Source of the DNA: Gnetum montanum
Lineage: Eukaryota; Plantae; Gnetophyta
Length of the DNA: 64,000 bases
Reading direction: 5' to 3'
Assembly (NCBI GenBank): GCA_015680685.1
Contig: MNCI01000329.1
Span: forward strand, 1 to 64,000
Below the pieces are notes generated by a model, which ran no database searches, was not told where the DNA came from, and was given only the letters and a program-made list of their open reading frames with translations. Both the position numbers and the translations under genes were made by a program. This document shows, piece by piece, positions 24,597-57,033 of the stretch; position 1 is the stretch's first letter, and each line of letters begins with the position of its first letter.

Positions 24597-27500
24597 ATGG
24601 ATTCCGTATACACGACCACAACCGCCATGGTCGCCGCTGACTTGGGTGCCACATCCATGAACCCCATCCCTGTCACCAGGCCAGCTCCTGGTGCGACAGG
24701 ACCTCAAGGACCATCACCTAGGTCATTGAGACTGCAGGGCAAAGACCCTATTTTCACGGTCATGACCCCTGATACAATTTCATTTGCATTAAGATCCAGG
24801 CAAAGCTTGCCCTTAGCTGGGCTGAGATCAAAGCAAAAAGAAATTATGAGATGATCCATCGAGGGGGTCACGATTTCACTCCAACAGCCTACGACTTTAT
24901 TCCTTTAATAGACCAGCAACATGAAATCATAACACAGTTGGTCATGGCCAAGAGCCAGGCTTCATGGGCTATGTTGGAGCCCCAGAATGGAGAGGAGGAA
25001 GAGGATGAATTGGCAGCCCAATATGAACACTCGTTCCATACTCTGAGCCCCCACACATATGTAAATCCCCTGTTTGCTTTCAATGGAGAGGCCGCTCCTC
25101 TTGACTTAGCCATAACCACATAGATGCATGTCCCCATCATTCCACAAGCCACTGCGTAGCCATCTGGGCTGCAAGTGCAAGTGCCCCACAATAACATGGG
25201 GGCGGTCGCATCATCACGGGTACTCAGCATTCCAGCCGTGGTTCCAGCAACCACCATGCCCTATTTCATCCTATAGATCCAACCCCAAACCATATCCATA
25301 ACTTGCCCGATGCAAACCCTATCTTTGCCACCCCCTCCAACCTAGCAGATCACCACCATCGTGCAACCGCAAATATCTGCTCAATAGTTTGCCGCCGCGA
25401 GTCAGTGGACCTACCCTACGGCACAACACAACCAATCGACAGTGTACGGTGTGCAACCCTTGGTGGCACCAGCAACATACATTCCGCAGGTGAACCTGCA
25501 GTACCACTACCCTTACCCCGCACAGCCGGTGACGGCAAATCTTTCTTCCCGAACCAGCAGATGGTGGTCTTCACAGGCACCCTGCCTTTAGGGATTCCCG
25601 CCCCACAGTCTACCGGCCCAACCATCCCACCATTCCCACTACCTGGCACTGCCTTCCTAGGTCAGCCCCCTGCTCCTCCTACACAAGCACCCCTAGCAAC
25701 AGGTCTAGACTAGGCTTTCCAACTTATCCAGACTCTTACCAAGGAGGTTAGATGCCTCAAAGCCACCGGTTCAAATACCGTTTAGATCATGGACTTTTAC
25801 TAGGATGATCCCATCAGTCCAGCGGTCCCCATGTTGTCGTTGCCTCCAGGGATGTCCTTACCCCATTTCACCAAGTATAATGGAGAGGGAGATCCCAATG
25901 CTCACTTGGTCACCTTTAGATCCGAGTCCTTGTTGTTACAACAATGGCCACACACGATTATCTGAGTCTTTGCTATGTCGTTAACAGGGAAAGCTTTGGA
26001 TTGGTACCGGGCCCTTCCATGCTCTTCCATCTCAACCTTGGAAGAGCTACTGACACAATTTGTGACCCTCTTTAAGTATAACTTGAAGTCGGAAGTCACG
26101 TTGGATCAGCTCATGGGGGTGAAACAAGACCCACTCGAACTAGTCCAGAGGTTCATACAACATTGAAATGCTACCTTGAATGAAATCTGTGAGTCAATCG
26201 CGGATTCACATCTACTTGCTATATTCAAGGGAGCAGTCAATGAATTTATTAAGTTAAAGCTGTACTATCTTTCCCCCAACTCTTTACATCAGGCCTTCGC
26301 TCAAGTTAGAAGCATCCAAGATGCTGCGGAGGCTAGCAAAGACCTGACGTATGTCGCCTACAGGAATGCTCACAACAAGGGCAAAGACAAAGGTAAGGCC
26401 ACAACAACGATAGTAGCTATGCTGACTGAGGGCTCGAAGAACAAGAACAAGAAGGCACCTACGTTGCCTCCTGAGGCTACGGCCAGTGCAAGAACCAGCC
26501 AAGACACCGTAGCTCCTGAAAAGGCCCCCAGCCAAAACCAAACTTTGAGCGTAAAGATCGCTCAAAGTACATGGCCCTACCTGTAAAGCATTCAGAACTA
26601 TTGAAACAACTATTAGGGGCAGGGCACATTCAACCTAAGAAGGTGTTCGAGGAATCTCTGAAGCGTCACAGACGTCATTGTGAACTACTGAAGAACCCTT
26701 CTTTAGCCTTACCTAACAAACCACCAGTTCCGAGATCTTTCAGGCTAGACCGTTTTTGTGACTATCACCAGCTGTGTGGTCACGATATAGATTACTGCTG
26801 GGTGTTGAAAGATGACATTCAACATATGCTGGATGATGGTTTACTCAAGTTAGACGACAGTAACCCGACGCACCCAGAAAACCAAACATTGCACGTATAT
26901 AAGGACCCGTTGAACGCAAACGACACTCCTTATACAATCAATGTGGTGAGTATGGACGGTTAGAGGAGGGGACCTCCAAAACAGCCTTTTGTTTTGTGTG
27001 TGCCTACCAGCTTACCAAAAGAGGGAAACCCTTCATCGATAGCCAGTAGTGCCTCCAGGACGCCCTTCATTATATGGGCACCTTCTCAGATAGACACTCA
27101 GTCACGCAGCAACAGACAAGCCGCAGCTTCATCCGCGCCCATGCCCAGGGTGCCCTTCATTATTAGGGCGCTAAAACCACAGGCTGCTCCTCTCACGCAG
27201 GGGTAGACCTCTAACCAGAATAGCCGACCATCACCCCCCAAGCGAAAGGGAGAGGACATACCTATTAACGCAATGAAAGACCATTCTACACTCGGCTTCC
27301 CTAAGCCTAGGCCCTTGGTCGCTACGCCTTCATCTCTGCCTCAGAAGCAGGATAAAGGCACAGAAACGCAGCCATCTTCTCTTGGCAAGAAAAAGAACAA
27401 CCCTTTGACCGACACTGTCCTACCTCGAGAGATCCGTCTTTTGGGCCAGATGGAAGAGGAAAAGGGAGACAAACCACCTAGCCGAGAGAAAGACGTCCTC

Positions 27501-28376
27501 GACGCAATTACGCAAGTCAAACAGGCTCTCAAACAAAAAAACACAACCCTGAGCCTTTATGACCTGCTTATGATGTCTCGAGAACACCGTGAGGCTATGG
27601 TTCGCATGCTGACATCCATATCAGTGGATGAAAGCTTGCCAGTGGAGGAGGAAGTGATACATGCTGTCATGTTTCCTTCCTAAGCTGAGCAACCTACACC
27701 TACTTCCCTGACCTTTCACGATGAGTCTATCAAAGATGATCCTGAGAAGGGTCAGGTCACAACTGAACCTATGTTCATCACCATTCGGGTCAGTCAATAC
27801 CAGATTCGGAGGGTACACGTGGATGATGGCGTAGCTACAAATGTCATCCCCTATTCCATCGTGAATAGGTTGGGTCTGGTCGACCATATCACTCCCACAG
27901 CTACGACTTGCGTAAAATCGTTCAACAGGGCATGGGTTCAAGTCAAGGGGATGGTGCATATCGAGTTTGTGGTAGGGGATCAATTCCCAATAGAGGCCAC
28001 ATTCTTAGTCATCGAGGAGATGCCGGGGTTCAACTTGATCTTAGGGAGGTCATGGTTAGCCCAGTTGAGGACAGTTTCATCACCGATACACCAAGAAATA
28101 CACTTGCCCTATGCCGGAGGGGAGGTCGTGATATGTGGAGATGAAATCACCCCCAGGACCGTCAATAACATTGAAGAAGAGCAGGGTTCGGAGATAGAAA
28201 CGACTGATGATCAGACCCATCTCCAAATCCCTCAGCAAACTGATATCAATGACGACAGTCTCGCCTGGGCCAACCTGCCATTTCCGGATGGCAGTGTAGA
28301 GGAGTCAAATCATAAGTCCCCCCACCCTTATGCAAACGTAAAGGCGATTAAGAGACAATTGCGTATTAATGGTTAA
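24597..28376 (+). pseudogene. gag: E1 gag-protease
   Basis: Retrotrans_gag motif KYNGEGDPNAHL...SLTGKALDWYRALP; Tat-type CDYHQLCGHDIDYC knuckle; protease RRVHVDDGVATNVIP...FNLILGRSWL. At least ten stops or frameshifts. Confidence 0.9.
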
Positions 28377-28603: not shown

Positions 28604-28838
28604 TGGCCCGCAACGGCCTTAAACTAGCTGTGGCCCGCAACGGCCTTAAACTAGCCGTGGCCCGCAACGGCCTTAAACAAGTTACACAGAATTGTGTACT
28701 ATCATCATTCATGCTTTCTCTACATAACGCAGATGGCCCGCAATGGCCTTAAACTAGCCGCGGCCCGCAATGGCCTTAAACTATTCCCTAGTTCACGCAG
28801 AATCATATGATGGCCCGCGATGGCCTTAAACTAGCCAC
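28604..28838 (+). repeat. Tandem array GGCCCGCAACGGCCTTAAACTAGC (27-bp unit, ~6 copies)
   Basis: Units at about 28605, 28632, 28659, 28735, 28762 and 28812. Confidence 0.95.
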
Positions 28839-29020: not shown

Positions 29021-32000
29021 TTATGCATCTCCTCTACTGCTACTCTCACCAGCATCTCTTAAGTCCAGATCTAGCCCTAATGGATCGTCCTCTAGTGGAC
29101 TGTCATTTCTGGGAAGTATTCTTTCACGAATAATTTCCTCTTCATGAGGTCCTTGTTCTCGTACCGGTTCCACAGGAGGACGCTCTTCATCACTGCGTTC
29201 TTCCTCTTGTACTAGTTCCTCAGCTTCCTCGTCTTCCCCATCCTCTTCTAGCACCTAAATACAAATGACATCAAATTTAGAGTAGGCAACATGGTCAAAA
29301 AATTTTAGATTTAGTCATGTATAAGCTTACTCGCGATGGCCCCACTTCCGCAGCGAAGGGAAGCTTCTCCAGGCCAGCCCACAGGCGCTTCATAATCTCT
29401 TCCTCCGTTAGATCTGACCACACATCATCTCCCAAGGAAGCTCCAGCCTTCACCTTCCCTTTCTCCACGCTAGTCCAGCGAGTTGGGTCAGGGAAGAATG
29501 TAGGGATGGTAGTCTGGCCCCCAGGGAGAGTCATCTCCCTTTCCGGGGATGCACTTACAGTCACCTGCTCTTCGAATTTCTTGAAAGCTTCTGATGCTCC
29601 GATGACGTCCAAGAAAACTTCTAGGGATTGAGCCTTGATGGTAGAATTGCGATAAAGCTTAAGGTAAGAAATGTTGTCTTGCTTATACACATGTTTGTGG
29701 TCCTTCTCCTTCTGCCCCCACTCTTGGACACATGCACAATAATCCCTCCAATCCTGGCTCTTCTGAGCTAGGAGCTCTATCTGCATCCACTGCTCTACCA
29801 ACGCTCGACTGGTTTGTACGCTGTGCTTAATGACGGTCCAATACCGAGAGTAGTCGATAACAGCAGTACGCCAGTCTTCATCCCCCATCTCCCGTGCCTG
29901 TAGGAATTCACACCGCGACCTTGGACCTCTGACCTCTTTGACCAGAGACTCCACCCTCCGCTCTGACCTCTGTAGCCTTTTCCATAAATTTTCATTTACG
30001 CCCCTACTTTCCCATAAGGAGCGTGTTAAGCATAACACACATTTATGCATTTCCTCATAAATGTGACGTGGCATGGCTGCCTCATCGGATGGCGGCTCCA
30101 TTGTGTCAAAATCAATGGGCTCCGTGGGATCCCATCGAAGGCGAGCTCCTAACAAAAAAAATCATCAATGTTGGTGGCATATTACCACTGTACAATATCA
30201 CGAACTTACAACAATCATAACCTACCAGCTCTAGGTTCGACGCACTCTAGGCGCTCGATCATGTCACTAACAATGCCTTCCATGAAGGTAAACTTGTCAG
30301 GAAAGTCTCTCCACGCTCTGCTCACGGCGACAGACGTGGATACCTACTCTTCTCCTGTAGCGTAATCAAGTTAGAAACTTTATTTATTAATAGAATCCTG
30401 CAAAATTTCTAACATACTCATTACCTCTACCGGTGACAGTGGCGACTTCGCCAACATCTTCCACCTCCTTTTCCTCTTCATGCACTTGGGCTTGTGCGTC
30501 GTTGGTTCCAGCAGTTGGGGCCTCCTCACGCACTAGGGTCTGTGCATAACTCACACTGGCAGCTGGGGCCTCTTCTTCCAAAACTGAGGCCCGTTCCCCA
30601 TGACTTACTATCATTGCCCCTATTTCAGGGGTCAGTTGCTTTGTAATTTGCACTAGTCACATTACAACACTCTTAGTATATCATTCCAAACATTCTAAAT
30701 AAACATTGCATAATAAAGTTTTCAATACATCTTCTTCACACTTACCAGGCGGAGGTTTACTCCGCTGAACCCTGACTTTCACGGTTTGACCACTCCCAGG
30801 CTCTGCAGAGGCCTTAGTTATACAAAGCCTTTTGCTCCGAGCTGTAGGTTCCACAATTTCCGCCGCTAGTCGTTTCCCCCATGAGGCATCGCCAGTGTAA
30901 GTAGGCATTATCCCACCTACACTGTCAGGGCCTCGCAGATGGGACGTCGCCAATCCTTTGGTCGTTATAGACAGTGACTCCCCGATCCCTTCTGGTGGAT
31001 CTTGCCCACGGGTAGTGCCAAGGATATGGGTAATCCAAGGTTTGGATAGCTGGTTTTGGTCTTGCTGCACCCAGAACTCATTCCTTTGGACGACCAGAAA
31101 CTCCGCAAAACACCCAAGGCAAGCTATGAAGAAGGCGTAATGCACATTGAAATGAGACTCAAGCTTCTTGCGAAGCTTGATCATCTCATTGCGCAGTCCC
31201 TTAGTGAAATAGCTTGCCCAATTGAACTGGGTCCCCTCTTCCAGAACCTCCTGCATAATACGGGTCTGTTCTATAGAAAAGAACTTCCCTTGTGAGAGCA
31301 TTTTGGGGAAGGTCCGGGCCCGAAAAAGGGGATAAATTGTCTTGGCGACGCCCATTTTGAATCTTTCGCAAGGAAACCCTTTAGCCTCCTTCGGGACTCT
31401 TACCCACTCCTCCAGCCACCTCTGGAAGTTGAGGCTCCTCTTCACCTTCTCATTTATGGGAAGGTCATCAGAGGGGATGCCAAATAGGTCTTCGAAGAGC
31501 TGAGCATCAATGTCAAAACTTACATGTACGTGATGCATGCGCGTGCAAAAATGATCTGCTTTTTCGTTGAAGGAGTTGACCAGGGTTAGCATTTCACTGG
31601 AGGGGACATCAGGAGTCGCAGCTAAAAATAGATGCATTAGCCCCACTGCTCGGATCTTGCTGGTCACTGCAACTGGGGCCACCGAGTGGTTGAGCCAGCG
31701 CTGTGCGTCCTTGATGTCGCCGTAGCGGAAGAGGACGGTATTCACCTCGCGGCCGGAAATTGTAAGGGTAATCTCTCGGGATTCCCTGACTAAACAATGT
31801 ACACCACAGGTCAAACAAAACACTATCACACAATATTTACAAATTCACAACTACACTACACAATAATCAACTATACAACAGCCTTACTAGGTCCAAATGG
31901 CAAGGGAAATGATGGAAGGTTCCTCTGCATGTCCTCAATGGTAAGGGGCGTATCTAAGGTCCAGTCATCATGTAGCCACCCGAGCCTTTGGCAATTCTCA

Positions 32001-32580
32001 AAAGCCTCAGCATAGCGGGTGGGGTACTCACGCATGTCGAAGCTGATCTGCCCTACAACACCAGCGCGCACGTTGCTAGTTGAGGTAAACGCCATTATTG
32101 CCGTTTCGGTCCATGATAACGTATCTCCATCTCCAAGTAACCTATTTTCACAAATAAAAAAACCTGTACCATACCACATAGGCTTACCTTATCTTATACT
32201 TTGTAAAACACAGATAATTGACATATAAGAACAATACAGTTAACAAAATTTGTTTACCCGCCTGGGTAGTACACTGTGCCTTGTGGGTTCTGGAGGTAGG
32301 TCGAGACATGGCGAACCATGAACAACATGTTATATGCATGATAACAGCTGAAATGGGCCATTTCCCAGATCCAATTTAAGCACCTTAAACCTTAGGCGCT
32401 GGGTTCTTAGTCCTCAGGATAACCAATATCAATGGCTTCATCTGTCAGGAAGGCCAGAATCCCTTATGCAGAACCCACCAGCAGGTGCTCCAGAATGGCA
32501 CCGGCGATATCACCGGACAAATCAGACCACACAATGACGCTGTAGTTGCGCAGTAAGAGCTGCAGAAACTCCAACTGTAG
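29021..32580 (-). pseudogene. E1 antisense multi-exon accessory gene: NIF/FCP1-like HAD pseudo-phosphatase + PMD-like + acidic/coiled-coil
   Basis: Exons >32580-32258, 32163-31888, 31789-30746, 30652-30425, 30354-30226, 30148-29331, 29254-29021. Six GT-AG introns of 94, 98, 93, 70, 77 and 76 nt. Introns 2-6 are phase-compatible. Exons 2-7 contain one internal TAG (30344-30346). Confidence 0.85.
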
Positions 32581-34588
32581 AACGGTCCACCCAAGTGCTA
32601 AGCTAGGAGTTGTCAAAGATGTTTAGGATGGACTAAATAGTTTGGAAACTTTTCTAACTGTGAGGCTTGCTATGCTACACTACGCTGCATAGCGTAGCAG
32701 GCCATGTGGTGTTAAAACTGTTGCAAGTATTAGATCAGATGCAAAATATATAGTTGGCAGATATTTGGTTTTCAAAGATGCCTGCCCTACTTCATCCTTG
32801 AAGTGTGATTAGAAAATTTCATCAAAAATCACCTCGGTCTAAGTGCTACACTGTGCTATGCTACATAGTGTAGCACAATGTAGTAGGGGCCTAGCATGAA
32901 AAAATATTTTCTGAAATTGTCTTGACAGGGAAAACACAAATGCCCATGCTTCAACCATGAAAAATGCTTATTCTACTGCCACCTTATAATATCACTAAGA
33001 TCCCATGACAAAAAACTTGCAAAGTAAGTCAAAATTTAAGTAAAACTAGGTGCTATGCTATGCTATGCTACATAGCATAGCACAACGTAGCTGGGTGATA
33101 ATGCAAGAAGATCGTCTATCAAGTTGTTCTAACAAAAGAATTGCACTTGGTCATTCTTCAACCTCCAAGACTACATGTCCCACTTCGCCCCCAAATCCCA
33201 ATCAAAGTCTCCTAACAAAACATTGCAAATTTTGATTCAAATTCATTCTAAACTAACTGCTACACTGTGCTACACTGCATAGCGTAGCACAACGTAGGAA
33301 GGACCTAAAAGATAAAAGGTGCCCTAGGGATGAAACCAAGTATCAGGCTCTTTTAACATGAAAAGTGTAATGGTTGATTGCTAAAATAGATTACCTTGCT
33401 AGGCCTTGAATGGGTCTTTTCAATTTTTCAGCAAGATTTGTCTTAAAGGTGGCTATTACGGTATGCTATGCTATGTAGCGTAGCATAGTGCAGCAAGCGG
33501 GTATTTATGCTACTTCACTATGCTGAACAATGTAAGTAGCGTAACACTTGAAAATAAGTTGTAGGACATCTCTAGAAGCTCCAGGACTCATCATCGATGA
33601 TCATTTCTTCCCCAACATCTCCTTGATAGCTAACATCAATAGTTTTCCTTGTTGCATCCCTTGTTGAGTCCCAAAATTTTCTCTATGCTTGACCTTACTC
33701 ATAAGAGAGGGGAAGATGTAGTGCCAAAGTGTAAGCTTCACTTTACATTTGTCATATGAATTTTTTATAAAAATATGGTAGTCCCTTGGGAACATGCAAT
33801 CTAAATGATATGGTCATAGCTCAGCAGGTTTCACTTCTAGCCTCATTCCATTCAGCGTAGCACATCAACTCAACATCACATGTCAGCGTAGCACATCCAT
33901 GTTTTTGCCCTGTGGGGCTTAGGAGACATGATATCCAAGCCACATCTCTCTCCCACTCTTGGCTCTACAAATACCCGAGCAAACAACATTCTGGGGGTTG
34001 GCTTTTGGTAGTAAGCTTTGACGAAGAGATTGGTAAATAGAAGGTTGATAAACAACAAATCCCAGTAGTAGCACTTCCTAGATCTCTCTTCAACCTAACA
34101 TAGCAGCTCTTAGCCCAGCAAGCATTGGCTCATTAGTTCCTATTAGCATCCCATTCGTAGTAGTCCAAGAGCTATAACCATATTGTTCCATTGCTAGTTG
34201 TGCCTATCCAGTACTACATACTAGTTTAGATCCCTTGATTTTGGGGTGGTGCATTCCCTCACCTAAACTCTCATTCTATTTTTGCTATAACATCTATGTT
34301 GCATCTTTGTGTACTTGTTCATGATTATTATCCTGGTTACATACTTTGATGTGTTTCTATTGTTGTGCAACCCATGTTTTCTTCCATTTCAACCTCACCA
34401 TGTTACATCTTAAAATTACTGTTTGCATATAGTTATTGTACACCACGTAAGTCCTTGACTGATTAACTAGACCATTCAGGGCACCCCATTTCCATTTTCT
34501 CCAGCATGACCCTTGCATGGATCTAGGGTTAGGCTATATTCCTAATACCCTCTTTGTGTTCCAGCCATCAACGTTTTTAGATGTCATA
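32581..34588 (+). repeat. 5' LTR of E2 (first ~300 bp missing)
   Basis: Match to the 3' LTR begins only at ACGGTCC (32582 vs 62641). Ends GATGTCATA before the PBS. Confidence 0.8.
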
Positions 34589-35232: not shown

Positions 35233-38200
35233 ATGAATCCTGCTACCACTTCGGTTCCTACCGTGAGTTTGGAGGTGTCTCAGTTTGTTCCACACATGAT
35301 GGATCTTGAGAGACCACCTAGCCTAATGCAAGTATCGTGGTAGTCTCTTAGATTGTAGCATCAATTTCCCGAACGTCTGACTTAAGATGAAGAGCGATAT
35401 AACTTTTTATGTGTAAAATCCAAGCAAATCTACCATTGGACTATCATGAATTTGAGGAAAAATGTAACTTTAAGATCATTCATTAGAACAAAATGGAGTT
35501 CATTCCTATGTTTGATACCACTATCCCACTCATCGACACATGTCAATGGATTTTAAACCACCTTGTCCAATTAACTAGGTCAAGAGAATAGCACACAATG
35601 TCTCACTATGATGAACCTTTTCATGATGACCAAGATGAGTTAGACTCCCATTTTGAAGGTGGTGGCCCAATCTATGCTATGACTGTCTCTTCCACCTCTG
35701 TTGTTTGTTCACACCAATCACAATTTTTTGCCTCTTTTGCTACTTCCATGACATTGCTGCAACCTAGACCCTCTTTGCTGATGGGTAGTCATCAAATGTT
35801 GCCAACATATCAACATGCAAGCCCTTCAACCCCATTTCCCATTAACCATCCTTCCGAGTCTGTCCAAGCCCTGCATCCAACGTCTATGATGCCCACACTA
35901 CCATACGTGCACATCATGCCCACATCACAATCCCATGTAAGTTCTATTTCTATCCCCTCCTCTATACCCATTCCACCATTAGTAGCAAGCCCAACTTCAA
36001 CTACATGCTGGACAACAACGACCTCTTTTCCTGTGGCTCAAATGTCTCACATGCCACAATACACACAACCCCAAACATACCAAGTTTCACATGTAATGCA
36101 ACCAAACATGGGGCTATGGGACATCCCAAACATTGGGTAGATAACCATCCCCATAGTGCCATTGATGCTAGCCACTCCAGTGGCATTGCCCACTAGGTTG
36201 TGGGCTACTCAAACAACACCACTAGCAAGAGCTGTTTCGCCAACATCCTCAATGGGACTCGTAGCCTCACCAATAGTGCCAGTAGTAATGGTTGTTCCAG
36301 TAGCTTCACAACCTCCTATAACACCCTTGAGTCTATACCAAGCCTTTCAACTCATCTAGACACTCATCGTAAAAATTAAATGGCTCAAAGCTGCTAGTTC
36401 TAAAACCATTCAAGTCATGGACTTCTACCAAGATGACCTAATTAGTCTAATTTTTCCCATGCATATGTTGCCCCTTGGGGTACAACTTCCCCAGTTTACA
36501 AAATAAAATGGGAAAGGTGATCTAAATGCCCACCTAGTCACTTTCAAATCTGAATCCTTGTTACTATAACTATGGACCCATACCATGATTCATGTTTTTT
36601 CCATGTCCTTGATAGGCAAGGCCTTAGACTGGTACCGCGCACTTCCTTGCACTTATATCTCAACATTAGAAGAATTGCTAAGCTAGTTCATGACTTGTTT
36701 TAAGTATAACTTGAAGTTGGAAGTCAGTTTATATCAACTCATGAAAATTAAACAAGAACCATTAGAATCCATACAAAAATTCATACAATGTTGTAGTGCT
36801 ACCCTAAATGAAATAGATGAACTAATTACCAAGGCCCATTTGCTAGCTATTTTCAAAGGAGTAGTAGACGATTTTATCAAATCCAAACTATATTATTTGG
36901 CTCTGCATTCCCTTAGCCAAGCATTTGCTCAAACTAAAAGCATTCAAGATGCGATGAAGGCTACTAGAGATCTAGCCTACTTAGCCTATAAAAACACACA
37001 TACAAAGGAAGATAAGGAGAAAGGGAAGGCCACAACAACCATGGTGGCCACTGTGGCTAATGAGATCAAGTCCAACAATAGCAAACAGATAGCCACAACA
37101 CCTAAGCCTCCACTAACACAACACTCGGCCCCAGTAGCACTAGTTAGCCCCCAACATTAACACCCATAGTGCAAACTCTACCAAGGCCAAATTTTGAGTA
37201 CAAAGATCACTCAAAATATACCCTGTTACCAATTAAGCCTTTGGAGCTTCTAAGTCAATTGCTAGGAGCTAGGCATATCCAACATACATGGATGTTAGAG
37301 CAGGCCCTTAAGCATCACGAAAGGTACTGTGAAGTCCTTCTAGACCCCTCCTTGGCTATGCCTAATGAACCACCAGTACCCAGGAACTTCAGGCTAGAGC
37401 ATTTTTGTGATTATCATCAATTATGTTGCATGATATAGATTATTTCTTAGCATTGAAAGATGATATCCAACGAATGATCCATCAAGGTAAGTTGGTCTTG
37501 GATGAGAGCAGTCTTGTCCAACGTGAAAACCAATCAATGAATGTTTACATAGATCCTTTGAATGCTACCAATCTAGGTTACACTATTGATGTCATTGGCA
37601 TTGATGATGACACAAAATCACAACATGAATCATTCATGGTTCATGAAACCCCTTGCAATGCTAAAGCTTCAACAACAACTAGGTCAAAAACCCCTTTTGT
37701 TGTTAGGGTCTCTCCATAGACATCTGATGCACCTTTTTTACTTAAAATTACATCGCATCCCACTGCAAAAAAGCTTATTAAAACTATCATCCTATAATTC
37801 AAAAAAGCTTATTATCCAACCCAAAGTCACTCCCCCTTGGGAGATTTGTCTTCTAGGGCACAGAGAAGAAGAAAAAGTTAGCAAACAATTAGACAGTGGG
37901 AAAGACTTCCTAAATGCACTTTCATAGGTTAAATAGGCTTTGAAACAAAAGAACACAACATTAAGATTGTATGACTTAATAATGACCTCTACGGTGCATT
38001 GTGAGGCTTTTTTTTTGCATGTTAGCATCTATTTCTATTAGTGAAAACATTTCAACTAAAGAGAAAGCTATCCACACCATTATGCTTCCCTTTGTGGCTA
38101 AAGAATTGTGGCCAGTCCATTTAACATTTCATGACAAATCCATCAAAGATGATCCTAAAAATGGTCAAGTGACTACCACCTCAATGTTTATCATAATTCG

Positions 38201-38819
38201 GATATGTCAGTATAAGATTTGTAGAGTACACGTTGATGACGGGGCTGCCACCAATGTGATACCATTCCCCATAGTGGACAAGTTGGGCATGATGGATCAA
38301 ATCAAGCCCATAGCAACCTCATATTTAAAATCATTCAATGGGGCATGTGTCATGGTCAAGGGGACTATTACCATCAACTTCATAGTAGGGGACCATTTTT
38401 CCACTAGTGTAGTATTTATTTTGGTAGAAGAGATGCCCGAGTTTAACCTGATCTTGGGAAGATCATGGTTAGCCCAACTAAGAGTTGTCTCCTCACCCAT
38501 ACACCAAGAGATCTACTTACCCTACATGAGTGGAGAGGTGGTGATCTTTGTTAATGAAGTAGCTCCTCAAGCCATAAATAATATAGAGGTGGAGAAAGGA
38601 TCAGAGATAGAAATATCTGAAAACAAATCATCCATTCATGTTGAAATTCCATTTTTGACAAATGAGCCATCCAAAACTGTCAACTTAAATAAAGAAACCA
38701 TGTGGGCCGAATTTCCCTTCCAAACAATAGATGATAGCATAGAGGAATACCACCACAAGGCCTCCTGATCATATGCCTTGCTTAACCCACTTCAGATTAG
38801 GAAACAATTGCATGGTTAA
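35233..38819 (+). pseudogene. gag: E2 gag-protease
   Basis: Homologous to E1: SLIGKALDWYRALP, FCDYHQLC, CRVHVDDGAATNVIP, FNLILGRSWL. Ends RKQLHG*. Confidence 0.9.
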
Positions 38820-38854
38820 AGTTTGTCTCTACTACTGGCATTAGTTAAAGTGAT

Positions 38855-39224: not shown

Positions 39225-40940
39225 CTATGAGTCTCTGCTAGTATCTTTATCCCCCACCCCACTAGGTCCAACATCCTCATTTAGGTCCTGCATAAAGCAA
39301 GAATAAAATAATGAGTCAAATTATGATCACATATCATAAAATAAGCTACAATATAGTAAAGCTTGGCTAACATGAGATGGGCTTGCGTCCATCTCTGGAG
39401 GTATTCTATCCATTCCAGCTACTAAGCATCGAAGTATTTCATCCTTACTTAAGTTGTCCCAATCTTCTTCCCCTAGATCAACGCCTACTACAATTTTCCT
39501 CTTCTCCATAGCTATCCATGTGGGTGGTCCTAGAGAGAATGTGGTAGTAGTGGTCTCCCCAAAAGGCAAGGTCATCTCTCTCTTGGGAGATTCACTCACC
39601 ACCACATGTTTTATAAATTTTTCATAGGCCTTGGTAGCACCAATCACATTAAGAAATAGCTCATGAGTATGCAATTCAATAGAAGCATCTCGATATTTCT
39701 AATGGTAGGTAGCATGTTCTACCTTGTACATGTGCTTATGATTTTTTTGTGCCTACCCCCATTCATACACCTTGGCACTGTAATCTTTCTAGTCTTGGTT
39801 TTCTTGGGCTAGTAGATCCATTTGCAAGCATTGTTCAATTATTTTAGGGGTAGCACTATTTTTTCCTCGTATGGCCAACCAATATCTTGCATAATTGATT
39901 ATGGTCATACACCAACTATTTTTAAAGGTGTTGCAAGCCATCAAGATTTCATTTTATGACTACAAATCTTCTAACTCAATTGCTTGACTAGCTTTCTCCT
40001 TTTTAAGCTTCTAGACTTGCTTCTAGAGCTCTTCGTTAATGTGTCTACACTCACACAAGGATCATGCTGAGTATAGCACATATTTACTAGCCTCCTCATA
40101 TATGTCACAAGATACCTTGATTACCTCTAGGGGGAGTTTAGGCATAGCATTAATTTCAACTGTTTGTCTGGGATCGCACTTAATTCAAGAAGCTAAGATA
40201 TCAAACATGAGAAAGTGTCAATCACAAGATAATGGAAAAAATAGAATAATGCAAATAGTAAGTATTGTAGTCTAAACATGCCTATTTCGGGATCAATTTA
40301 CCTTAAGCGGTCAATTATATCATGAACTAACCCTTCCATAAGGGTAAATTTATCTGGGGTTTTTGCCCATGGTCGTAGGTGAAATGAGGAGGAAGATTCA
40401 AGAACCTTAGTAGCATTGTTTGCTGTGCAACAAAGGATGTTAACATTGTAAATAATAGGGAGAAGAAAGGAGGAAGTAATATAAATGACAGTGTCAAGCT
40501 CCTACCTAGCAAACCCTCAGGGGTGAGAGTAAGGGGATTGTCCATCAGTACATTGTCAAACAAAGCATCAAACTCACCAGCCCCAAACTATAGTCATTCT
40601 TCCTCAAGTTAAGTTAATAGTGTAACAGTGTCTTCAACATCATGTGCCCCTTAGGTGCTGGGGCACACTCTACGAAAGGTTCATTTGTAGAAGGAGCCTC
40701 TTCCTCTATGCAGGGGACCTCCTCCTCTGCAGTCCGAGCCTCTTCTTCTTCTATAGCAAGGGCCCCTACCTCTGGGATCAAAGCTTCTTCTTCTTCATCT
40801 ATTAAACACATCTAAAGTGAGCATTCTAGTCTAACATAAAAAGGGAAGGGTGGAGGGGTAGCTAACAAGACAATTAAACCATACATACCAATAAATGTAG
40901 GTTGTACTTTATGAAAGTTGAGTCGGTTGCTATATACCAA
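39225..40940 (-). pseudogene. E2 antisense accessory gene, 3' exons
   Basis: LFLNVIGATKAYEKF...SESPKREMTLP...WDNLSKDEILRCL matches E1 exon 6. PDKFTLMEGLVHDIIDRL matches E1 exon 5. Last intron 39371-39288 and last exon 39287-39225. Confidence 0.85.
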
Positions 40941-42365
40941 TAGTTAGAAAAATGCACCACTCCGAAGCTACAAGCTTGCTCTATCAAGGTGGATATAGTC
41001 AGTTGCATGGTGTGGTGGAGTGCAGAGATCTTGAGAGTAGCCAAGACATGTGGAGCAAAATGGGTTGTGCGCTTGGGTGTGGCCGTGGGCGTTGACCATG
41101 CAGAGATTCTACCAAGGTGGTAGAAAGGGAATGGAACAAAATGCCAATAGAAATTGCTAACTATTTGTAGTGTCAAACAGGAAGCTTATAATGCTTGATG
41201 TCACAACATGTCAAGAAGAGAGCTTGAGTGCTAGAGAGAGGAAAAGGCAAAGACTCCTTTAAATCTTTGAACTCTTCAAATGATGCTTGTTGAAAGAATT
41301 TGAACCCTTTGAATGTTATTTTTTGGAGAATTTCCAACAGCCAAAGTTAGTCCAACCCCTTTGAGCACTATTCATCAGGGTTTTTATAGGGCTAGAGGGC
41401 ACGCGAAAGGGGTGGTTTGGATGCCATGTGCCCTAGGCCCATGTTGACTTGCTGGCACCACATGTATCATGTATGACCATTGGACCGGCAAGACCATTGT
41501 AATGCGAACTTGCTATTCCATAATTGTGAGCTTTCCATGCCATAATTTTGCCATCAGCATCTAGAGATGTATGTCAACAGTCCAATTAGATGAAGTGCAT
41601 TGATTTTGTACAACCACTCACATGCTGCGCTGTGCTTTGTAGCGGAGCATGCTTGGTATGGCGTAGCACCTTATTGTACATTTCACTACATATGTGTTGC
41701 ATGCTTTCTATGCTATGCTATGCTACATAGCATACTGTAGCATAGCAACTGGCCTTAGCCATGAAAGCTTTGCCAATTTGCAAACTTTTCTTTCGTGAGA
41801 CTTGCAAACTTGCTGATTCCACCCTTTGAGCTACCTTTTGTCTTTTTCATAGGATTGCTACACCTTATTGCGCCTTGTAGCTTAGCATAGCATAGCAGTA
41901 GACATGGTCTATCACTTCCTGATTCAAAGGAACATTGCTAAAGGACTTAAAATTAGGCATGGGAATTGGCTGTGAAGCTTTTTCCAGGCTATGCTATGTC
42001 ACATGGCATAGTGTAGCGTAGCGCTCCATTCTGCAATTGTTTTCTGGAGCTTGCTATGCTACATAGTGAGGTGTAGCATAGAGTAGTAGACTTCATGACT
42101 TAGAAAACTTGCTAAACTATTTTTTACATCCAAAATGCTGTTGCCAACTCCACACGTCATTTCTAAGCAGGTTGTCAACTCGGCACGCTACTTAGGTGGA
42201 CAGGCAGGATGACCTGTAGAGCCTGTTTTCATCTAACGTAGAAAATTTGCCAAACTGGCTGGATTGAACTAAAAATGTTCTCCTCCTGAAGAACTACCAT
42301 GGTGCTGCGTGAATTGCAAGGCCTGGTGAAGCAAGGATGATCCTACATTTTTTTGGGGTGTTTCA
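40941..42365 (-). repeat. 3' LTR of E3 (last ~280 bp deleted)
   Basis: Matches 52888-54311. Minus-strand start TGAAACACCCC. Confidence 0.9.
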
Positions 42366-42399
42366 TTGGTCCTTCTTAGTCGACGTCTAGAGTACAGGC

Positions 42400-43310
42400 T
42401 TGATACAAGTCAAAAAAGAATAGAAAACACTGCAGCAAGCGAAATGCTAAGGTTATCACTTGGTGGGTGTTTAGACATCGCTCGACTACACTTGAGAGTG
42501 TTGCATTGGTTTTGCAGAGGTTAAGATAGAGAGCAAAGATGATGTTTAGTAGAGTCCCTCGTTGGAGTGCTCTGAGGGGCTCATTTTCATTTTCATCTTT
42601 GGCTGGTGTTGTTCTTCAACCTCTTGTAGGATAGGTATTTCCTTCATAGGATGAGTTGTGTTACATCCGTGAAGGATTTTGACCTACCTACAATTGCTTT
42701 CCATGTGGCGAGTTGCGTTGCACACATGTCATGGAATTTGCACTCTGAAGTAGCTAAGCTAGTTGAGGCACTCGCTTTGCGACACTGTAGAATTTGCTGC
42801 TGTTGCGAGATGTGCCCTTAGGGGCAAAGGTCTTGTTAGCTATGGGCATTGTTGAAGCTGTTAGACATCATTACTAGTGTACGATGTCCAAAGCAAGAAG
42901 GCCAATAGTGACCTTGATAGCATTAGCGCAGGGGAGCTAGTCTCTAAGGCACCAAGAGGTGCTGCGGGTGTAGATGCTCTGGAATCCCTGCTAGGGGCTT
43001 GCATTCCTATTTTAGCTATGGGATCAGTTGCCACATAGCTAACGTTGTGCAAGACCAAGCATTGGTAGGGAGTTGGAGTAACAACATCGTGGCTGGGCCA
43101 CAATACTGCTAGAACTCCAGATGTGGGAACTAGCCTAGGAACCATCGTTAGGATGATGGGCCATGGCGACGGTAGGTTTGAAGGGTGAGTGTGACACCAT
43201 ACGACATCTTTGGAGGGCCAACATGATGCCAAGGGTGGCGGCGCCACATATGTTCCAAACTACATTCTCAATGTGTTGTGAATTGTGTTCTAGAACTACA
43301 ATGTCCCACC
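42400..43310 (-). pseudogene. Decayed extra sense ORF in the E3 3' region
   Basis: ORF 42861-43247 frame is homologous to E2 ~60975-61120 with synonymous third-position changes. Confidence 0.5.
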
Positions 43311-43374
43311 CACATGTTATCATCACACCCAATCATTCAATATGTTACTGGTGCATGCTGGGGATGCGACGCAA

Positions 43375-43590
43375 ACCTAGTTTAAGCACCTAGTAGATCA
43401 TGTGTTGGTTTAAGGTCCCAGTGGACCGTTGTGCTAGTTTAAGGTCCCAGCGGACCGTACATGCTAGTTTAACATTGTAGCAAATGGCTATTGCCAGTTT
43501 AATGTCGTAGCGGATGTTGCTCGATGTCGCTAGTTTATCATCATTGCAAACGCTACTTGGTGCGATTACTAGTTTATTGTCATAGCGAAC
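43375..43590 (-). repeat. TAAACTAGC-type array after E3 integrase
   Basis: About seven ~30-bp units (plus strand GCTAGTTTAA). Confidence 0.85.
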
Positions 43591-43614
43591 GGTGCTTGTA
43601 GTTGCCATTGCATT

Positions 43615-46600
43615 TCAGATGTAGTACATCTTGAGATACGAGTGATTCACTAGGGTGGTGAACTTGTTGCCACTCATATCTGCCAGCTTGAAGGCTCCAT
43701 TCCCAAAGGCTTTAGTGACCACATAAGGACCTTCCCAGTTGGCTGAGAATTTGCTCACATGCTCACGGATGGCCTTGAGGATGAGGTCTCCCTTTTGCAC
43801 TGGCTGTCAATGTGGGTCTACACAGTGCTTTTGCTACTACTTGCTCTGGTAGTGCTCAATGTGTCTCAACGTTTGTGTGTGCTCCTCCTCCATTGAGTCA
43901 AGGTTGATGGTTTGCAAATCATTGTTCTAGGCTTCACTCATGACATTCACGAGGATCATCTGGAGTGAGGGTACCTGTAAGTCAAGAGGCAATAGAGCTT
44001 CAGATCCATAAACAAGACTATAAGGGGTCTTACACATTGTAGTTCTGCACGTTGTTCTGTAGGCCCAGATGACATAGAGGATTTTCTCGTGCCATTGTCT
44101 CTTGCTGTTGTTAAGCATTCACTTCAGCAAGTTGATGATAGACTTATTTGTAGCCTCCACCTACCCATTCGCCTGTAGATAGTAAGGGGAAGTAAATGAT
44201 TGTTTAATGGCTAGATTGCTATAGAAGGTTTGGGTTTTCGTGCTGCTGAACTGTGGTCCATTGTTGATCACAATAGTCATTGGAAGCTCAAACCTTGTTA
44301 CGATGTTGTCAAGGATGAAATGGTAGATTTGTTAAGACATTGTCTTCCTTAGGGGAATGGCTTCCACCCACTTGGTAAAATACTCAATGGTGGTAATAAT
44401 GAAGCTATGCCCCACTGAGGAGTTAGGTGTGATAGGTCCTATGAGGTCTAATCCCCATCGTTGGAAGGGCCACATGATTTGTGTTGGGTGTAGGTCTGTG
44501 GGCGAGACATGCATGAGATTTACATATCTCTAGCATGTTTCACATGTCTTAACTTTTGATAGGTAGTCATGTTCCATGTGGGGCCAGTAGTACCCTAGTC
44601 ATCTAATTTTGGTAGCCATAGTCTTGGGTGCTATGTGTCCACCACACAACCCCTCATGATGTACCTCATTAACTACCTTCTATGCTTGCTCGCCGCCCAC
44701 GCATGCTAGAAATATCCCATCGTAGGAGCATTGGCACAGGGCATCATTTCCCATGAGCATGTATTGTTGGGAATGCTTACGGATTGCATTTCTCTGGGCA
44801 AATGTCAATCCACCTGGGGGTTTTCTGTGCTGTAGATAGGTTTTAAAATTGGCATACCATTCTTGGGTATCTGCAGCACTGACAGATGCCATGTGTTTCA
44901 CCCAAGTGATAGGCTCTATGCATTCTATAATAGCAGTTGGCAGGTTTGCCAAGGAATGTGATGGAATGTTTAACGCAAGGGTAGCTAAGGCATCTACTAT
45001 GGTGTTCTCATTGCATGGCACGTGTTGCACATCCATCGTTACAAATTTCTTAAGTAAGATTTTTGATAGGTCGTAGTAGGGTTGCAGGTGCATAGCTTTG
45101 TAGGCATAAACCTTGGTGATTTGATTCATGACTAGTTGTGAATCTCTGCGGATCGCTAGGTGTTGTATGCATAGTGCTCAGGAAGTTAAGAGGCCTCTGA
45201 GTAGCCCCTTGTATTCTACCACGTTGTTGGTGCAAGGGAACATAAATCAATAAGCGGATGGATGTATTTCCCAGAGGAGAATGTGATTATGGTAATGATG
45301 CTACCTCCTTGAGTGGTTGAGGTGCCATCAAAATGTAAGGTGGCTTTGAAATGAAATGGGACGATGTTGACATTGCCAGCGTACTCGTCCGGGAATTCAG
45401 GGTCTATGGTTGCTTGTTCATCGACTAGTGATGTCATGAGTTGGGTCACTATGGATTGACCCTTTGTCGATGATTGACTTACATAGCGTAGATCAAACTC
45501 TGTGGTTATTGTCTTCCATTGGGCTATCCTACTACTTTTGTATAAGTTGTTGGTGATAGCCCAGAGTATATTGCTTTTGCAAATGGTGTTGGTTGTACTA
45601 TAGAATAGGTAATGCCGCCACTTCTTTATTGCGAATACTAACGCTAGGAAATTCCTCTTCACTTCATTGTATTTTTCCTCGTGCGCTATTAGCACATGAC
45701 TCAGATAATACACTGGTATCTCAGAACCGTCGTCTTGTTTCTGACAGAGCAGTGTTGCAATAGATGTGTCAGAAGTGATGAGGTAGATGAAGAAGGGTTT
45801 ATCCCTTTCTAGTAGATGCATAGTCAGGAGGTGTAAGAGTTCCTTCTTGAAGTCATCAAAGGCTTGTTGACATTGAGTTGTCCATTCAAAGTTAACCCCC
45901 TTCTTCAGAAGATGTTGCATGGGGTGTAACTTGTCAATCAACCTTGCGATAAACCTTCGAATGAATTGCACTCTACCTTTCAAACCACGTAACTCCTTAA
46001 GGTTTTTGGGAGGCGCTAGGTTGATGATGGCCTTAACTTTGTCAGGGTCCACCCGTAGTCCAGCCTCTGATACTATGAACCCTAACATGCATCCATTTTC
46101 ACCCCGAAGATGCACTTCTTAGGATTGAGGAATAAGTCGTGCATTTGGCAGCATTTGAGGACTACCCCTAGATCACGTGGGTGATCAGATGCCTCCTTGG
46201 ACTTGATTGTTATATCATCCATGTAGTTGTTTAATGTTTCTATGATGTAATCACTAAAAATCTAAGTCATGGCTCGCTAGTAAGTTGCTCCAGCATTCTT
46301 GAGCCCGAAGGGCATCATGGTGTAGTAGAAGGTTCCCCATAGGGTCATGAAGGTTGTGGAAAACTAGTGCTCTGGATTAATGCAGATTTGGTTGTACCTA
46401 GAGAAACCATCCATGAAGGATAGCAGATCATGGCTAGCCATGGTGTTGATCATTTGATCAATGCTTGGTAGTGGGAAGTCATCCTTGATTGTTGCCTTGT
46501 TCAAGTCCCAGAAGTCTATACAGATCTGTATTCCTCCCTTTTTCATTGAAACTATGATGATGTTGGACACCCACTCTAAATAGTCAACTGTGTGGATGAA

Positions 46601-47086
46601 ACTTGCTTGATATAGCTTATTGATTTCATCCCTCATGACTAGTGCTATTTCTGGCTTAGCTTTGCGAGCCTTCTGCTTGACTTCCTTCATGTGTTGGTCT
46701 AGGACGATGTTATGCTAAATCAGCCGTGGATCCAGACCTGGCATGTCTCTATACAAACATGCGAAGACATTGATGTTTTCTTGCAGAATCTTGGCTACAT
46801 TTTTATGCATTTTTGTGTCTAGGAGGGAGCTGAGTTTCAATGTCTTCTCCTCCCCCGTTAACATGGTCACAAGTGTCTCGACGAGAGGGTCCTCAGTTAC
46901 ATCCCCGGCCTCTATGTCTAGAGCTTGGACTAGATTCATGGGCTAATCCAGGGATGCTTCGAAGGCTGCTATAGTGATAATTGTGGTCGACCCCTAGTCA
47001 ATCATGTTCAGGTTCAACTATTCTGTGAGCTTGCTCTGTGGCCCTGCTAATGTTAAAGGTGTGGAAAGGTCATGATGGATTCCCAT
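43615..47086 (-). pseudogene. pol: E3 pol: RT, RNase H, archaeal-type RNase H, integrase
   Basis: DLNKATIKDDFPLP, SFMDGFSRYNQI, MPFGLKNAGAT, YMDD; PVYYLSH; LHFDG (aRH); WPFQRWGLDLIGPI, YFTKWVEAIPL, WEGPYVV. Confidence 0.95.
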
Positions 47087-47329
47087 CTCTTGCTCGACCT
47101 ATCATCATAAGATGAAAGCCCAGTTAAGAGGCATTTGTCAGTAGAGATTGTGTGTAACGAAAATTTGTAAAGTAGTGATGAGATGCAACTTGTGAAGTGT
47201 GTCGATGTAAAGATTGCAAGTTTTTCTATTTAAGGTCATGGTGGACTGCCAAGGCATAGGAGCATAAAACTGCTAAAGGTGTAAAAATACTAACATAAAG
47301 TATGATGTTGTGTGACTTTCAATATGCAA

Positions 47330-47900
47330 ATGCCAAACTGCTAGTTTAGTGTCATTTTGGACTACCAAATTGTGACATGCAAAATCTTAACATGCAAAAT
47401 AATAGTATGTGAAACGAGAAACTTTGAGTATGAGAAGTGCTGACCGTTAATGTGAAAATATGAACTGCAGACATGAAGTCACAAAACCAATAGAAATGGT
47501 GACATCGCCCATGTGGAAGAAGATGCGAAAACCACTAATGTAAGCATGCAATGTTGTTAGTTTAACATCATTATAGACCAAAAAATGTAACAGGTCAAAA
47601 ATTCTAGTTTAGGATTTTTTCATACTGTTAGAGGTGCAACTATGCTAGGATTACTAGTTTAAGGTCTTTTCGAATCATTGCTAGTTTTAGGCCATTTCGG
47701 GCCATTGCGTCAAATGGCAAAAGGATTATATATTAGCAAAGTCAAAAGAAAAAATGCTAGTTTCAGGCCATTTTGGGCCATTTCCAAAAGAGATAGTACT
47801 TTAACAAAGAAAAAAAGCGATGATGTTAGTTTTAGGCCATTTTGGGCCATAACAAAGCAGAAAGCAATGATGCTAGTTTTATGCCATTTCGGGCTATACC
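47330..47900 (-). repeat. GGCCTAAAACTAGC-type array in the E3 PR-RT spacer
   Basis: Plus-strand GCTAGTTTTAGGCCATTT-like units at ~47340, 47655, 47680, 47756, 47826 and 47872. Confidence 0.8.
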
Positions 47901-47981
47901 GTAGCATGCCATAAGGATGGCATGTTAACAAAGAAAAGAAGTGGTGAAGCACAAGGGATGGCAACTGGGCAGGAAGCTTTA

Positions 47982-50900: not shown

Positions 50901-51797
50901 CCATAATCCCATGTTAGGCTATCCTAACTACGAGGCTTGGTGCATTTGAGAGGGCATGTAGTGAGACATTTGCGATGCTTGCGGAATGGGTGAAGGAACA
51001 AATGGGGCCCACCATGTGGATGGGATGGGGCCCACCATAGTGGGTGGAACGAATGTGAATGTAGGAATAGAAACAAAAGTCATGTATGCTTGTGAAAGAG
51101 GCATGGTATGAACATGTGGTAGGGTAGCCACGATTGACGTACGATATGCTACAGGAATAGACTGTTGAGTAGTTAGCAAAGGGATAGTAGTTGCAGGCGA
51201 AAGAGGGTGTTGAAACATCATAGAATTAGCATGACTACCCATAGCAGCTGTAATCATGGGTTGTGGGAGCATGGGAATAATTACAAAGGGAGTGGTAACA
51301 GATGATGGCTTGGCCTAGAAGGACCAGGTAGGAGGGACAGGAACGGGGCCGGTTGGATCTCCCTCATTTGATTGGGAATTGAGTTTCTCTTGCCTATCCT
51401 GGAAAGCATCATCTTGGTTGGATGCTATGTCATGTTGCTCCCTAAGCCTAGGCAACTGGATTAGTTGGTCTAGAAGCCTTTGGTACACTTGTGGTAAAGG
51501 TAACGAAATGCCGGGAATAGGGATAAATTCCTTCCCATTGCAGTAAGCGAACTCGAAGCTACATTTCTCTTCGAGTTTGTGTAAATCCAAGGGCAGATTT
51601 GCTTGCACCTTTGCACAAAGGAAACTGTAATGCTCATGTTGCTGGGCCAATCCCTCAAGCCCTCGATTTTGGACTCTGAGAGATCGATGTGTTCCTAGAA
51701 TCGGATTCAATGGTTTTTCAGCACTAGTAGTGCCTTGAACCATGATGGGAGCTTCAACATTAAATAAGTTGGTAGTAGTAGTTGAAAAATCCATCAT
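47982..51797 (-). pseudogene. gag: E3 gag-protease
   Basis: NYNGEGDPNAHLVTFKSESLLL, FCDYHQQCGHNMDYC, RVHVDDGAATNVIP, NLILERSWLAQL. Confidence 0.9.
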
Positions 51798-51887
51798 TAA
51801 ACAAGTAGTTATGCAAAAAAGTGCAAAAGTTATGCAAAAGAGTGCTAGCAAACAAGGAAATTGGAAGACAACAAAAAAGAAAGAAGA

Positions 51888-52490
51888 AGAGGAAGGCTTT
51901 ACATCTTGCTAGATTCCGAAGGAACCGTCGAGGCGAACGACCTGCACCACACAAGTCATAAACAACTAGAAATGGGTGTTGCATTTACGTTAGTATGTGA
52001 TAGGGTGCAGAACACGTGCAAGACTACCATAAGAATGGAAAGCTAGTTAGCAACCAAGAAGGCTTTGCATCTCATAGGATCCTGAAGGGACCATCGAAGT
52101 GACCATCCTATACCATGCAAGATGGGGTATGGAACACATGTAAGAAAACCAGAAGGTGGGCAAGCTAACTAATGGTCAGGAAGGCTTTGCATCTCGTAGG
52201 ATCCCCGAGGGACCGTCGAAGTGACTGTCCTGTACCACGCGAGATGGGGTACAGAACACATGCACGACAACAGTAAGGCGGGCAAGCTAACTGGCAATCA
52301 AATGCTTTGTGTCTTGTAGGATTCCAGAGGGACTGTTGAAGAGACCATCCTGTAGCACACGAGATGGGGTACAAAATACATGCAAGAAAACTATAGGAAT
52401 GAGCTAGTTAGCTAGCAATCGGAGGCCTTGTGTTCTGTAGGGCTCCCAAGGAATCGTCAAGGTGACTGATCTGCACCACACAAAGTGCAA
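51888..52490 (-). repeat. Five copies of a ~120-bp leader repeat in the E3 5' UTR
   Basis: Units start near 51890, 52057, 52178, 52300 and 52420. Confidence 0.9.
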
Positions 52491-52584
52491 ACAACCACAA
52501 AATGATGTCGCATCTATGCTTATGCATATTAGGATGTAGAAGGCTCATAGAACTACCATGACATGTGGAAAAGGCACCAAAAGG

Positions 52585-52601
52585 CCCTCCTTCTAGTGCC
52601 A
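52585..52601 (-). promoter_or_regulatory. PBS tRNA-Asn (E3)
   Basis: Plus-strand CCCTCCTTCTAGTGCCA. Confidence 0.9.
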
Positions 52602-52607
52602 GAAAAC

Positions 52608-56570: not shown

Positions 56571-56599
56571 ACACCAAAATTTTCACCTTATTTTTATAA

Positions 56600-56925: not shown

Positions 56926-57033
56926 TGTGACATTGCATAATCACCTTGCATATATTTCATCACATGTTGCTCTATTAAGCAAGTATCACTTAATTTCTAT
57001 TTGTTTTGCTTATTTTGCAGGAGTGCTTCAAAA

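Follow-up and report, generated by a model that had tools for sequence, protein, structure and literature searches.

An antisense gene with a first exon likely captured from a plant NIF/FCP1-homology gene in Ogre/Tat-like Gypsy elements of Gnetum montanum

The 64,000-nucleotide stretch of Gnetum montanum DNA analyzed here (hereafter the window; contig MNCI01000329.1, positions 1 to 64,000) contains three related Gypsy long terminal repeat (LTR) retrotransposons, E1, E2 and E3, each built of a gag-protease (PR) region, a spacer with CCTTAAACTAGC-type repeats and a reverse transcriptase (RT), RNase H (RH), aRH and integrase (INT) region. Two of them, E1 and E2, carry an antisense gene whose first exon is, as judged by profile comparison, homologous to the DLNG-type NIF (PF03031) domains of plants and algae and was likely captured from a host gene of this type. 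The reading favored on balance is an antisense, likely spliced accessory gene in which exon 1 encodes a captured NIF pseudo-phosphatase, which likely serves as a metal-free binding module. A first-pass annotation of the window had proposed a transposon-borne pseudo-phosphatase, and the profile matches, the contigs of the element family and the Gypsy domain order bear out a transposon-borne, NIF-derived and apparently catalytically crippled protein.

Homology of exon 1

The two copies of exon 1 are located on the minus strand, where the peptides quoted in the first-pass annotation are indeed encoded (32580-32258 in E1 and 55394-54953 in E2).

32258..32580, minus strand: E1 exon 1, NIF/FCP1-like domain with its 5' part (motif I) truncated and three TAA stops; a GT donor follows 32258, in phase 2.
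54953..55394, minus strand: E2 exon 1, entire NIF-like domain with an ATG at 55394, several stops and two frameshifts, both between the motif-I stretch and EFLEFL.

These copies are homologous to each other at 37% identity (tblastn E 3e-18). As a pair they align by hhalign with 17 DLNG-type NIF domains over 103 collinear columns (probability 96.5%, E 9e-10) and with a 96-domain set composed of these 17 references and 79 land-plant domains (probability 95.8, E 8e-9). The references were obtained by searching with a plant-type motif, which yielded 122 metagenome loci and from these 22 distinct full-domain open reading frames (ORFs) that were then subjected to a redundancy cut; 17/17 score as Pfam NIF (PF03031). 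The score of 58.3 reached by the exon-1 pair is attained by none of 200 column shuffles (maximum 24.1) and none of 200 shuffles of eight-column blocks (maximum 32.0), and the reversed pair scores 13.3. Across the window, the 17-domain profile ranks the E1 and E2 exons first (E 9e-7) and second (E 0.004) of 1704 six-frame chunks, and the 96-domain profile again places both at the top (E 4e-6 and 0.014). A third chunk (62199-61750, E 0.048 with the 17-domain profile) is gone with the larger profile and was rejected as a chance match. The pair matches ten viral SCP-type NIF proteins more weakly (hhalign E 1.4e-4), and a giant-virus SCP-type profile did not single out the exons in the window (ranks 9 and 17 of 1704).

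A chance likeness to NIF, which would fit with the lack of a direct Pfam or PDB match and with a reference subfamily picked after the query had been seen, is largely refuted and keeps hardly any probability, given that the reference sequences are independent of the query, that 0/400 shuffles and the reversed control approach the observed score, that both copies head the 1704 chunks with two profiles and that four motifs occur in order and spacing. The motif pattern on which the first-pass annotation relied is thus beyond chance. The profile searches that it had proposed gave a divided result, with Pfam NIF matching neither copy and the profile-profile comparison detecting the DLNG-type domains. 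An NCBIfam search of exon 1 likewise returned no match, and a word-based search among longer proteins with the exon-1 pair returned 0/449 candidates. The motif-I stretch of E2 aligns in register with NIF and is weak when taken alone (E 0.15).

The NIF homology is confined to exon 1. Within 31888..32580, the interval for which the first-pass annotation had described the NIF fold, exon 1 (32580-32258) has the likeness and exon 2 (32163-31888) is not NIF-like. As a candidate C-terminal tail of a host NIF protein, exon 2 was rejected at a score of 11.1, with 54/150 and 75/150 shuffles scoring equally high.

The host DLNG-type proteins carry the names 'FCP1 homology domain-containing protein' and 'NLI interacting factor'. 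Among solved structures the subfamily matches UBLCP1 best (E 2e-6), and the SCP C-terminal domain (CTD) phosphatases come after it; UBLCP1, SCP1 and CTDNEP1 are its solved relatives, and its best NCBIfam match is HAD-IIID. UBLCP1 acts on the proteasome. The literature listing contained no biochemical study of the DLNG subfamily. The host proteins often have two tandem NIF domains (149 near-full domains in 120 proteins; L024:676-2928, P0010-P0038), and a number of them also contain CCCH zinc fingers or an RRM in a fusion.

Catalytic residues

Among the 96 host domains, motif I begins with Asp in 94/96 and has, two places on, Asn in 80/96 and Asp in 1/96; motif III has Lys in 96/96, and motif IV is Asp-Asp (first Asp 85/96, second 77/96). 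The first motif-I Asp is the nucleophile in SCP1 (PMC7281111). The form of the closest host subfamily is DxN, not the DxDxT whose loss had been proposed. The corresponding positions in the elements are as follows.

55359..55367, minus strand: motif I core (host D-x-N), Lys-Leu-Val in E2 (Lys-Leu-Val-Gly); most family contigs have Glu at the first codon and none listed has Asp.
32524..32526, minus strand: motif II Ser (W-S), kept in both copies.
32383..32385, minus strand: motif III Lys position, Arg in both window copies.
32311..32316, minus strand: motif IV Asp-Asp positions, Val-Arg in E1 and Thr-His in E2; family contigs do not have Asp at the first.

Motif I is seen in E2 only, E1 being truncated there. 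At position 55367, contigs of three DNA runs (579, 529 and 554 aligned to the E2 stretch) depart from the E2 letter in 71, 78 and 79% of depth and so encode Glu here, and no variant of at least 25% of depth occurs at the other two bases of this codon or at the Asn position. At position 32315, 99.8% of depth in DNA run X1 and 22/22 reads of RNA run X12 carry a letter that is impossible in an Asp codon. Catalytic loss is a family trait at these two codons, one in motif I and one in motif IV, and for motif III and the second motif-IV codon the replacement is seen in the window copies. The first-pass annotation had described the motif-I Asp and the motif-IV Asp-Asp as replaced, and the family contigs agree with it at one codon each, its wording of the ancestral motif apart. 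Together the replaced motif-I and motif-IV Asp residues and motif-III Lys support a catalytically crippled NIF-like domain. It is very improbable that the domain is still an enzyme, weakened or altered, in which Glu takes the place of the nucleophile: the family codon is acidic and 2/96 host domains have Glu there too, but the motif III Lys is gone and neither acid of motif IV remains.

Selection, copy number and RNA

Between E1 and E2, identity in exon 1 is 0.56/0.64/0.30 at codon positions 1/2/3 (pS 0.91, pN 0.40); the last exon behaves like exon 1 (0.53/0.68/0.32), and exon 2 gives 0.50/0.60/0.41. Different codons are used at 29/37 residues shared by the two copies of exon 1, a result that upholds the earlier appeal to synonymous changes in favor of this frame. 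Among the family variants listed in 55394-55312, 9/16 are synonymous (hand scored); the 22 near-fixed E1 differences are mostly private to the E1 copy and did not enter the assessment of selection. The exon-1 frame was under purifying selection, and both window copies of the antisense gene are dead. The stop at 32466 is missing from 98% of family contig depth. The element family is large, since 25,897 contigs of X1 align on 4 kb of E1. In X12 (346 reads), first mates amount to ~200 on the plus strand versus 25 on the minus strand in summed depth (~8x, hand summed), a bias that suggests antisense RNA if the library was stranded in the usual way.

Host elements and position of the gene

The elements are laid out as follows.

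25195..28373, plus strand: E1 gag-protease region (Retrotrans_gag E 2e-4; Asp_protease_2 E 0.11), 66-69% DNA identity to E2 and E3.
28604..28835, plus strand: E1 spacer repeat cluster, CCTTAAACTAGC-type, 3' of the protease.
32580..34475, plus strand: probable 5' LTR of E2, which starts at the point where E1 exon 1 breaks off.
35592..38822, plus strand: E2 gag-protease region.
40940..54313, minus strand: E3, a nested related element with LTRs 85% identical, gag-PR, a ~1 kb spacer and RT-RH-aRH-INT.
56595..56927, plus strand: E2 spacer repeat cluster before RT.
57020..60500, plus strand: E2 pol (RT-RH-aRH-INT), 67% identical to and collinear with E3 pol.
62639..63056, plus strand: probable start of the E2 3' LTR.

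In E2 the order is probable LTR, gag-PR to 38822, repeats, antisense gene, repeats, pol from ~57020, repeats and probable LTR start at 62639, so that the antisense gene sits between protease and RT and not 3' of pol; E3 interrupts the gene there, and part of it is deleted. The order in E1 is the same, and motif I is missing from E1 because its exon 1 is cut at ~32580 by the start of the E2 LTR. Neither this truncation nor the position between protease and RT had been recognized in the first-pass annotation; the remainder of E1, including its 3' end, would be located beyond the window. The probable LTR pair of E2 is recognized from 32582-32977, which matches 62641-63056 at 81% over only 416 bp, and the LTR start GAACGGTC mirrors the end GACC(A/G)TTCA common to E1 and E2. 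Neither a primer-binding site (PBS) nor a target-site duplication was identified for E1 and E2 in the window. Pfam domains RVT_1, RT_RNaseH, RVT_3 and rve occur in that order in E3, which gives RT-RH-aRH-INT, the order and aRH position of Ogre/Retand elements (PMC6317226), and by their domains the elements are classed as Ogre/Tat-type Gypsy. On the sense strand, candidate GT donors follow PR and a candidate AG acceptor precedes RT, with phases that disagree.

Alternatively, the antisense gene could be a passenger that came from the host or from a DNA transposon, inserted into the protease-RT spacer and was under selection before capture. Its introns, the lack of the gene in E3 and the decayed NIF repeats of another kind in plant-like metagenome contigs (see below) would fit with this. 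Selection is instead placed inside the element lineage because E1 and E2 carry the gene at the same place and are saturated at synonymous sites while their gag regions are 66% alike, and the passenger is considered very unlikely.

Several further features of the elements were noted. The same 26-30 bp repeat unit stands on both sides of pol, bracketing the antisense gene, in all three elements (28617-28824, 38870-39063, 56626-56909, 60558-60845, 47883-47351 and 43504-43387), and recombination there could promote gain or loss of the antisense gene or of pol. No TGG-type PBS is evident after the shared LTR end GAC(C/T)(G/A)TTCA (24240-24300, 34475-34540 and 52720-52660), and the motif TAGCATGGCCC after the LTR ends, a U6-like candidate, was rejected as it has no Rfam support. 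Positions 1-22800 are AT-rich and contain older retroelement fragments, with gag/protease-like ORFs at 9207-9530 and 12584-12913 and direct repeats at 9936-10701/15418-16181 (88%) and 7488-8308/18315-19112 (75%).

Gene structure beyond exon 1

Downstream of exon 1, the following exons are proposed.

31888..32163, minus strand: putative E1 exon 2, ~90 aa, no known family, not a host NIF tail.
30746..31789, minus strand: putative E1 exon 3, ~350 aa without a stop, no known family.
29298..30148, minus strand: putative E1 last exon, ~285 aa without a stop, with 38% identity to E2 and no relative among 1.84 billion representatives.
54594..54868, minus strand: putative E2 exon 2, with a non-canonical acceptor in E2.
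54312..54511, minus strand: E2 exon 3, 5' part, truncated by E3.
39339..40205, minus strand: E2 last exon, decayed (tblastn E 1e-58).

The GT donors and AG acceptors of E1 and E2 correspond in location and phase (exon 1/2 in phase 2, exon 2/3 in phase 1), and GT-AG splicing would join the exons into one protein of ~900-1000 aa. The predicted layout is a NIF-like N-terminus, two middle domains of no known family and a charged helical end. Exon 3 gave 0/1598 candidates in a word-based search, no match in Pfam, PDB or NCBIfam and a predicted fold with a pLDDT of 34.7; it may resemble PMD/Transposase_32 patterns. The last exon had 0 matches in 1.84 billion representatives. The interval between exon 3 and the last exon (30745-30150) may contain two more small exons, one in an acidic stretch of low complexity (30684-30450) and one in a short block that is conserved in E2 (30319-30224, 53% with E2 40375-40280).

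Proposed function

In the favored reading, a host DLNG-type NIF gene would have been captured by an Ogre/Tat-type Gypsy lineage and would be transcribed separately, on the antisense strand. Its introns would be retained through reverse transcription owing to their orientation opposite to that of the genomic RNA. The former active site no longer has the acids that bind Mg but still has the motif II Ser; its Lys has become Arg, and Arg or His occupies the places of the acids. Such a site would hold on to a phosphorylated residue and not hydrolyze it. The protein would then bind or mask a phosphoprotein of the host on which the DLNG-type phosphatases act or with which they associate, and this would favor element expression. 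Non-hydrolyzing phospho-binding is favored because the Mg-holding acids are gone and basic or His residues occupy the pocket, and we consider it somewhat more probable than its negation that the NIF-like domain binds a phosphorylated host protein in this way.

Two other uses of the domain compete with this one. The domain may owe its retention solely to a role as a folded scaffold or as a surface for protein contacts, with an old active site that no longer binds phosphate. The wide divergence of the exon-1 pair from every host (stem 3.17), the mostly core-hydrophobic nature of its shared residues and the difference between E1 and E2 at the motif-IV positions would all suit a scaffold; but the W-S of motif II, the motif-III Arg, the His after motif IV and the N-P are common to both copies despite saturated synonymous sites, and this explanation is rated unlikely, with some weight. 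Alternatively, the domain may read the phosphorylated Pol II CTD and steer transcription or splicing of the element. The fold family includes CTD phosphatases, and if the sense strand had an intron there like that of Ogre, between protease and RT (PMC4408406), control over splicing would be useful. The nearest relatives, however, are the DLNG subfamily, closer to UBLCP1/HAD-IIID than to SCP1, no CTD activity for this subfamily turned up in the literature listing and nothing points specifically to the Pol II CTD as partner; a CTD reader, the function suggested by the first-pass annotation, is accordingly improbable.

Several observations weigh against phospho-binding by a captured domain in a spliced antisense gene. 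Pfam (NIF, PF03031, and other families) and PDB sequence searches with the exon-1 copies or the pair gave no match, and the AlphaFold check proposed by the first-pass annotation, run with AlphaFold2 on the two-row exon-1 alignment, gives a pLDDT of 37.8 and no fold support. The donor lineage is unplaced, the pair sitting in the tree on a branch of 3.17 with support 46. The family check covers just two catalytic codons, each in one subfamily, and the other two stops of E1 exon 1 are not among the 40 of 609 variants listed. The three RNA runs (X12, X15 and X16) contain no spliced junction and their reads continue into intron sequence; X12 has an unspecified strand convention and reads that begin at few places, X15 (108 reads) and X16 (31 reads) have no clear strand bias, and one RNA read falls on the E2 stretch. 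No antisense gene was found in E3, so the gene is not needed by every relative. Finally, phospho-binding is something we infer, and phosphatase activity of the host subfamily itself is not established in the literature listing.

A bolder version of the favored reading is rather unlikely. It holds that a spliced counter-silencing gene lies backwards in the protease-RT intron of Ogre-type elements, that the captured NIF pseudo-phosphatase which it encodes recognizes a phospho-mark borne by the machinery for transcription or silencing of the host, perhaps by the Pol II CTD, and that the same host subfamily was captured independently by unrelated plant transposons.

Comparison with known systems

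The antisense extra ORFs of the Tat clade (Retand TRP28/Transposase_28, Grande gene23, PMD and PMD-coiled-coil) resemble the present gene in being conserved antisense genes of aRH-bearing Gypsy elements (PMC7264820, PMC11963269, PMC4408406, PMC6317226), in their adjoining tandem repeats and in having an undefined function for which a regulatory role has been proposed. For maize Grande gene23, an antisense transcript of its own has been reported (PMC7264820). Those ORFs lie 3' of pol or 5' of gag, whereas the present gene lies between protease and RT in E2; it precedes pol, and its position is not the Retand-type one between pol and the 3' LTR. It also differs in having several introns, as proposed above, and a NIF-like N-terminus, and Pfam finds no PMD or Transposase_28 domain (PF04195 or PF10536) in it.

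Ogre elements share the order of gag-PR, a spacer and RT-RH-aRH-INT, with an intron located between protease and RT (PMC4408406), where the present elements have candidate donors after PR and an acceptor before RT. Here, in contrast, the spacer holds an entire antisense gene, and the sense intron is a candidate only, with phases that disagree. Orchid Gypsy elements with a captured AlkB m6A demethylase (PMC9289625) are alike in that a host enzyme domain became fixed in an extra ORF; the orchid domain is active and near to host enzymes, whereas the NIF-like domain has apparently lost its catalytic residues and is very diverged. With the plant DLNG-type NIF/FCP1-homology HAD proteins (PF03031), the element domain shares the 103-column collinear match, the motif II W-S and the N-P, but the motif I Asp, motif III Lys and motif IV Asp-Asp are replaced in the element, and its domain stands at the N-terminus of a transposon protein with no intron within the domain.

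A separate set of NIF copies was found among the metagenome loci. Decayed, intron-less, low-GC copies make up 39 of the 122 loci (L012, L026, L042, L051, L057, L072, L087 and others) and group into no fewer than two or three repeat families, whose members have flanks of up to 3 kb in common. In a comparison of 22 of these loci, long common flanks are 65-92% identical; the copies are probably transposon-borne, and the shared flanks would fit a second transposon-borne family. They retain the motif IV Asp-Asp, which the search pattern required. No sequence similarity to the window was seen outside the NIF domain.

Significance

Antisense extra ORFs and captured host domains are already known in Gypsy elements. 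The literature search, with subscription papers outside its scope, found no report of a NIF domain in an LTR element; the word 'phosphatase' is absent from the available portions of PMC11963269, PMC6317226 and PMC12786077, and NIF is not among the domains named in section 12 of PMC9289625, as far as its available text extends. Where antisense extra ORFs in plant LTR retrotransposons come from and what they do is a standing question, and according to a review most of them do not resemble host genes (PMC7264820). The present gene can be traced to a host-enzyme ancestor and has a defined pocket, so that its function is directly testable by binding and activity assays. The finding also flags an unstudied plant phosphatase subfamily as useful to transposons. 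An intron-containing extra gene positioned between protease and RT would be missed by screens of ORFs of at least 250 codons located 5' or 3' of the polyprotein (PMC6317226). If the counter-silencing reading with independent captures were true, the NIF pseudo-phosphatase would be a recurrent transposon tool.

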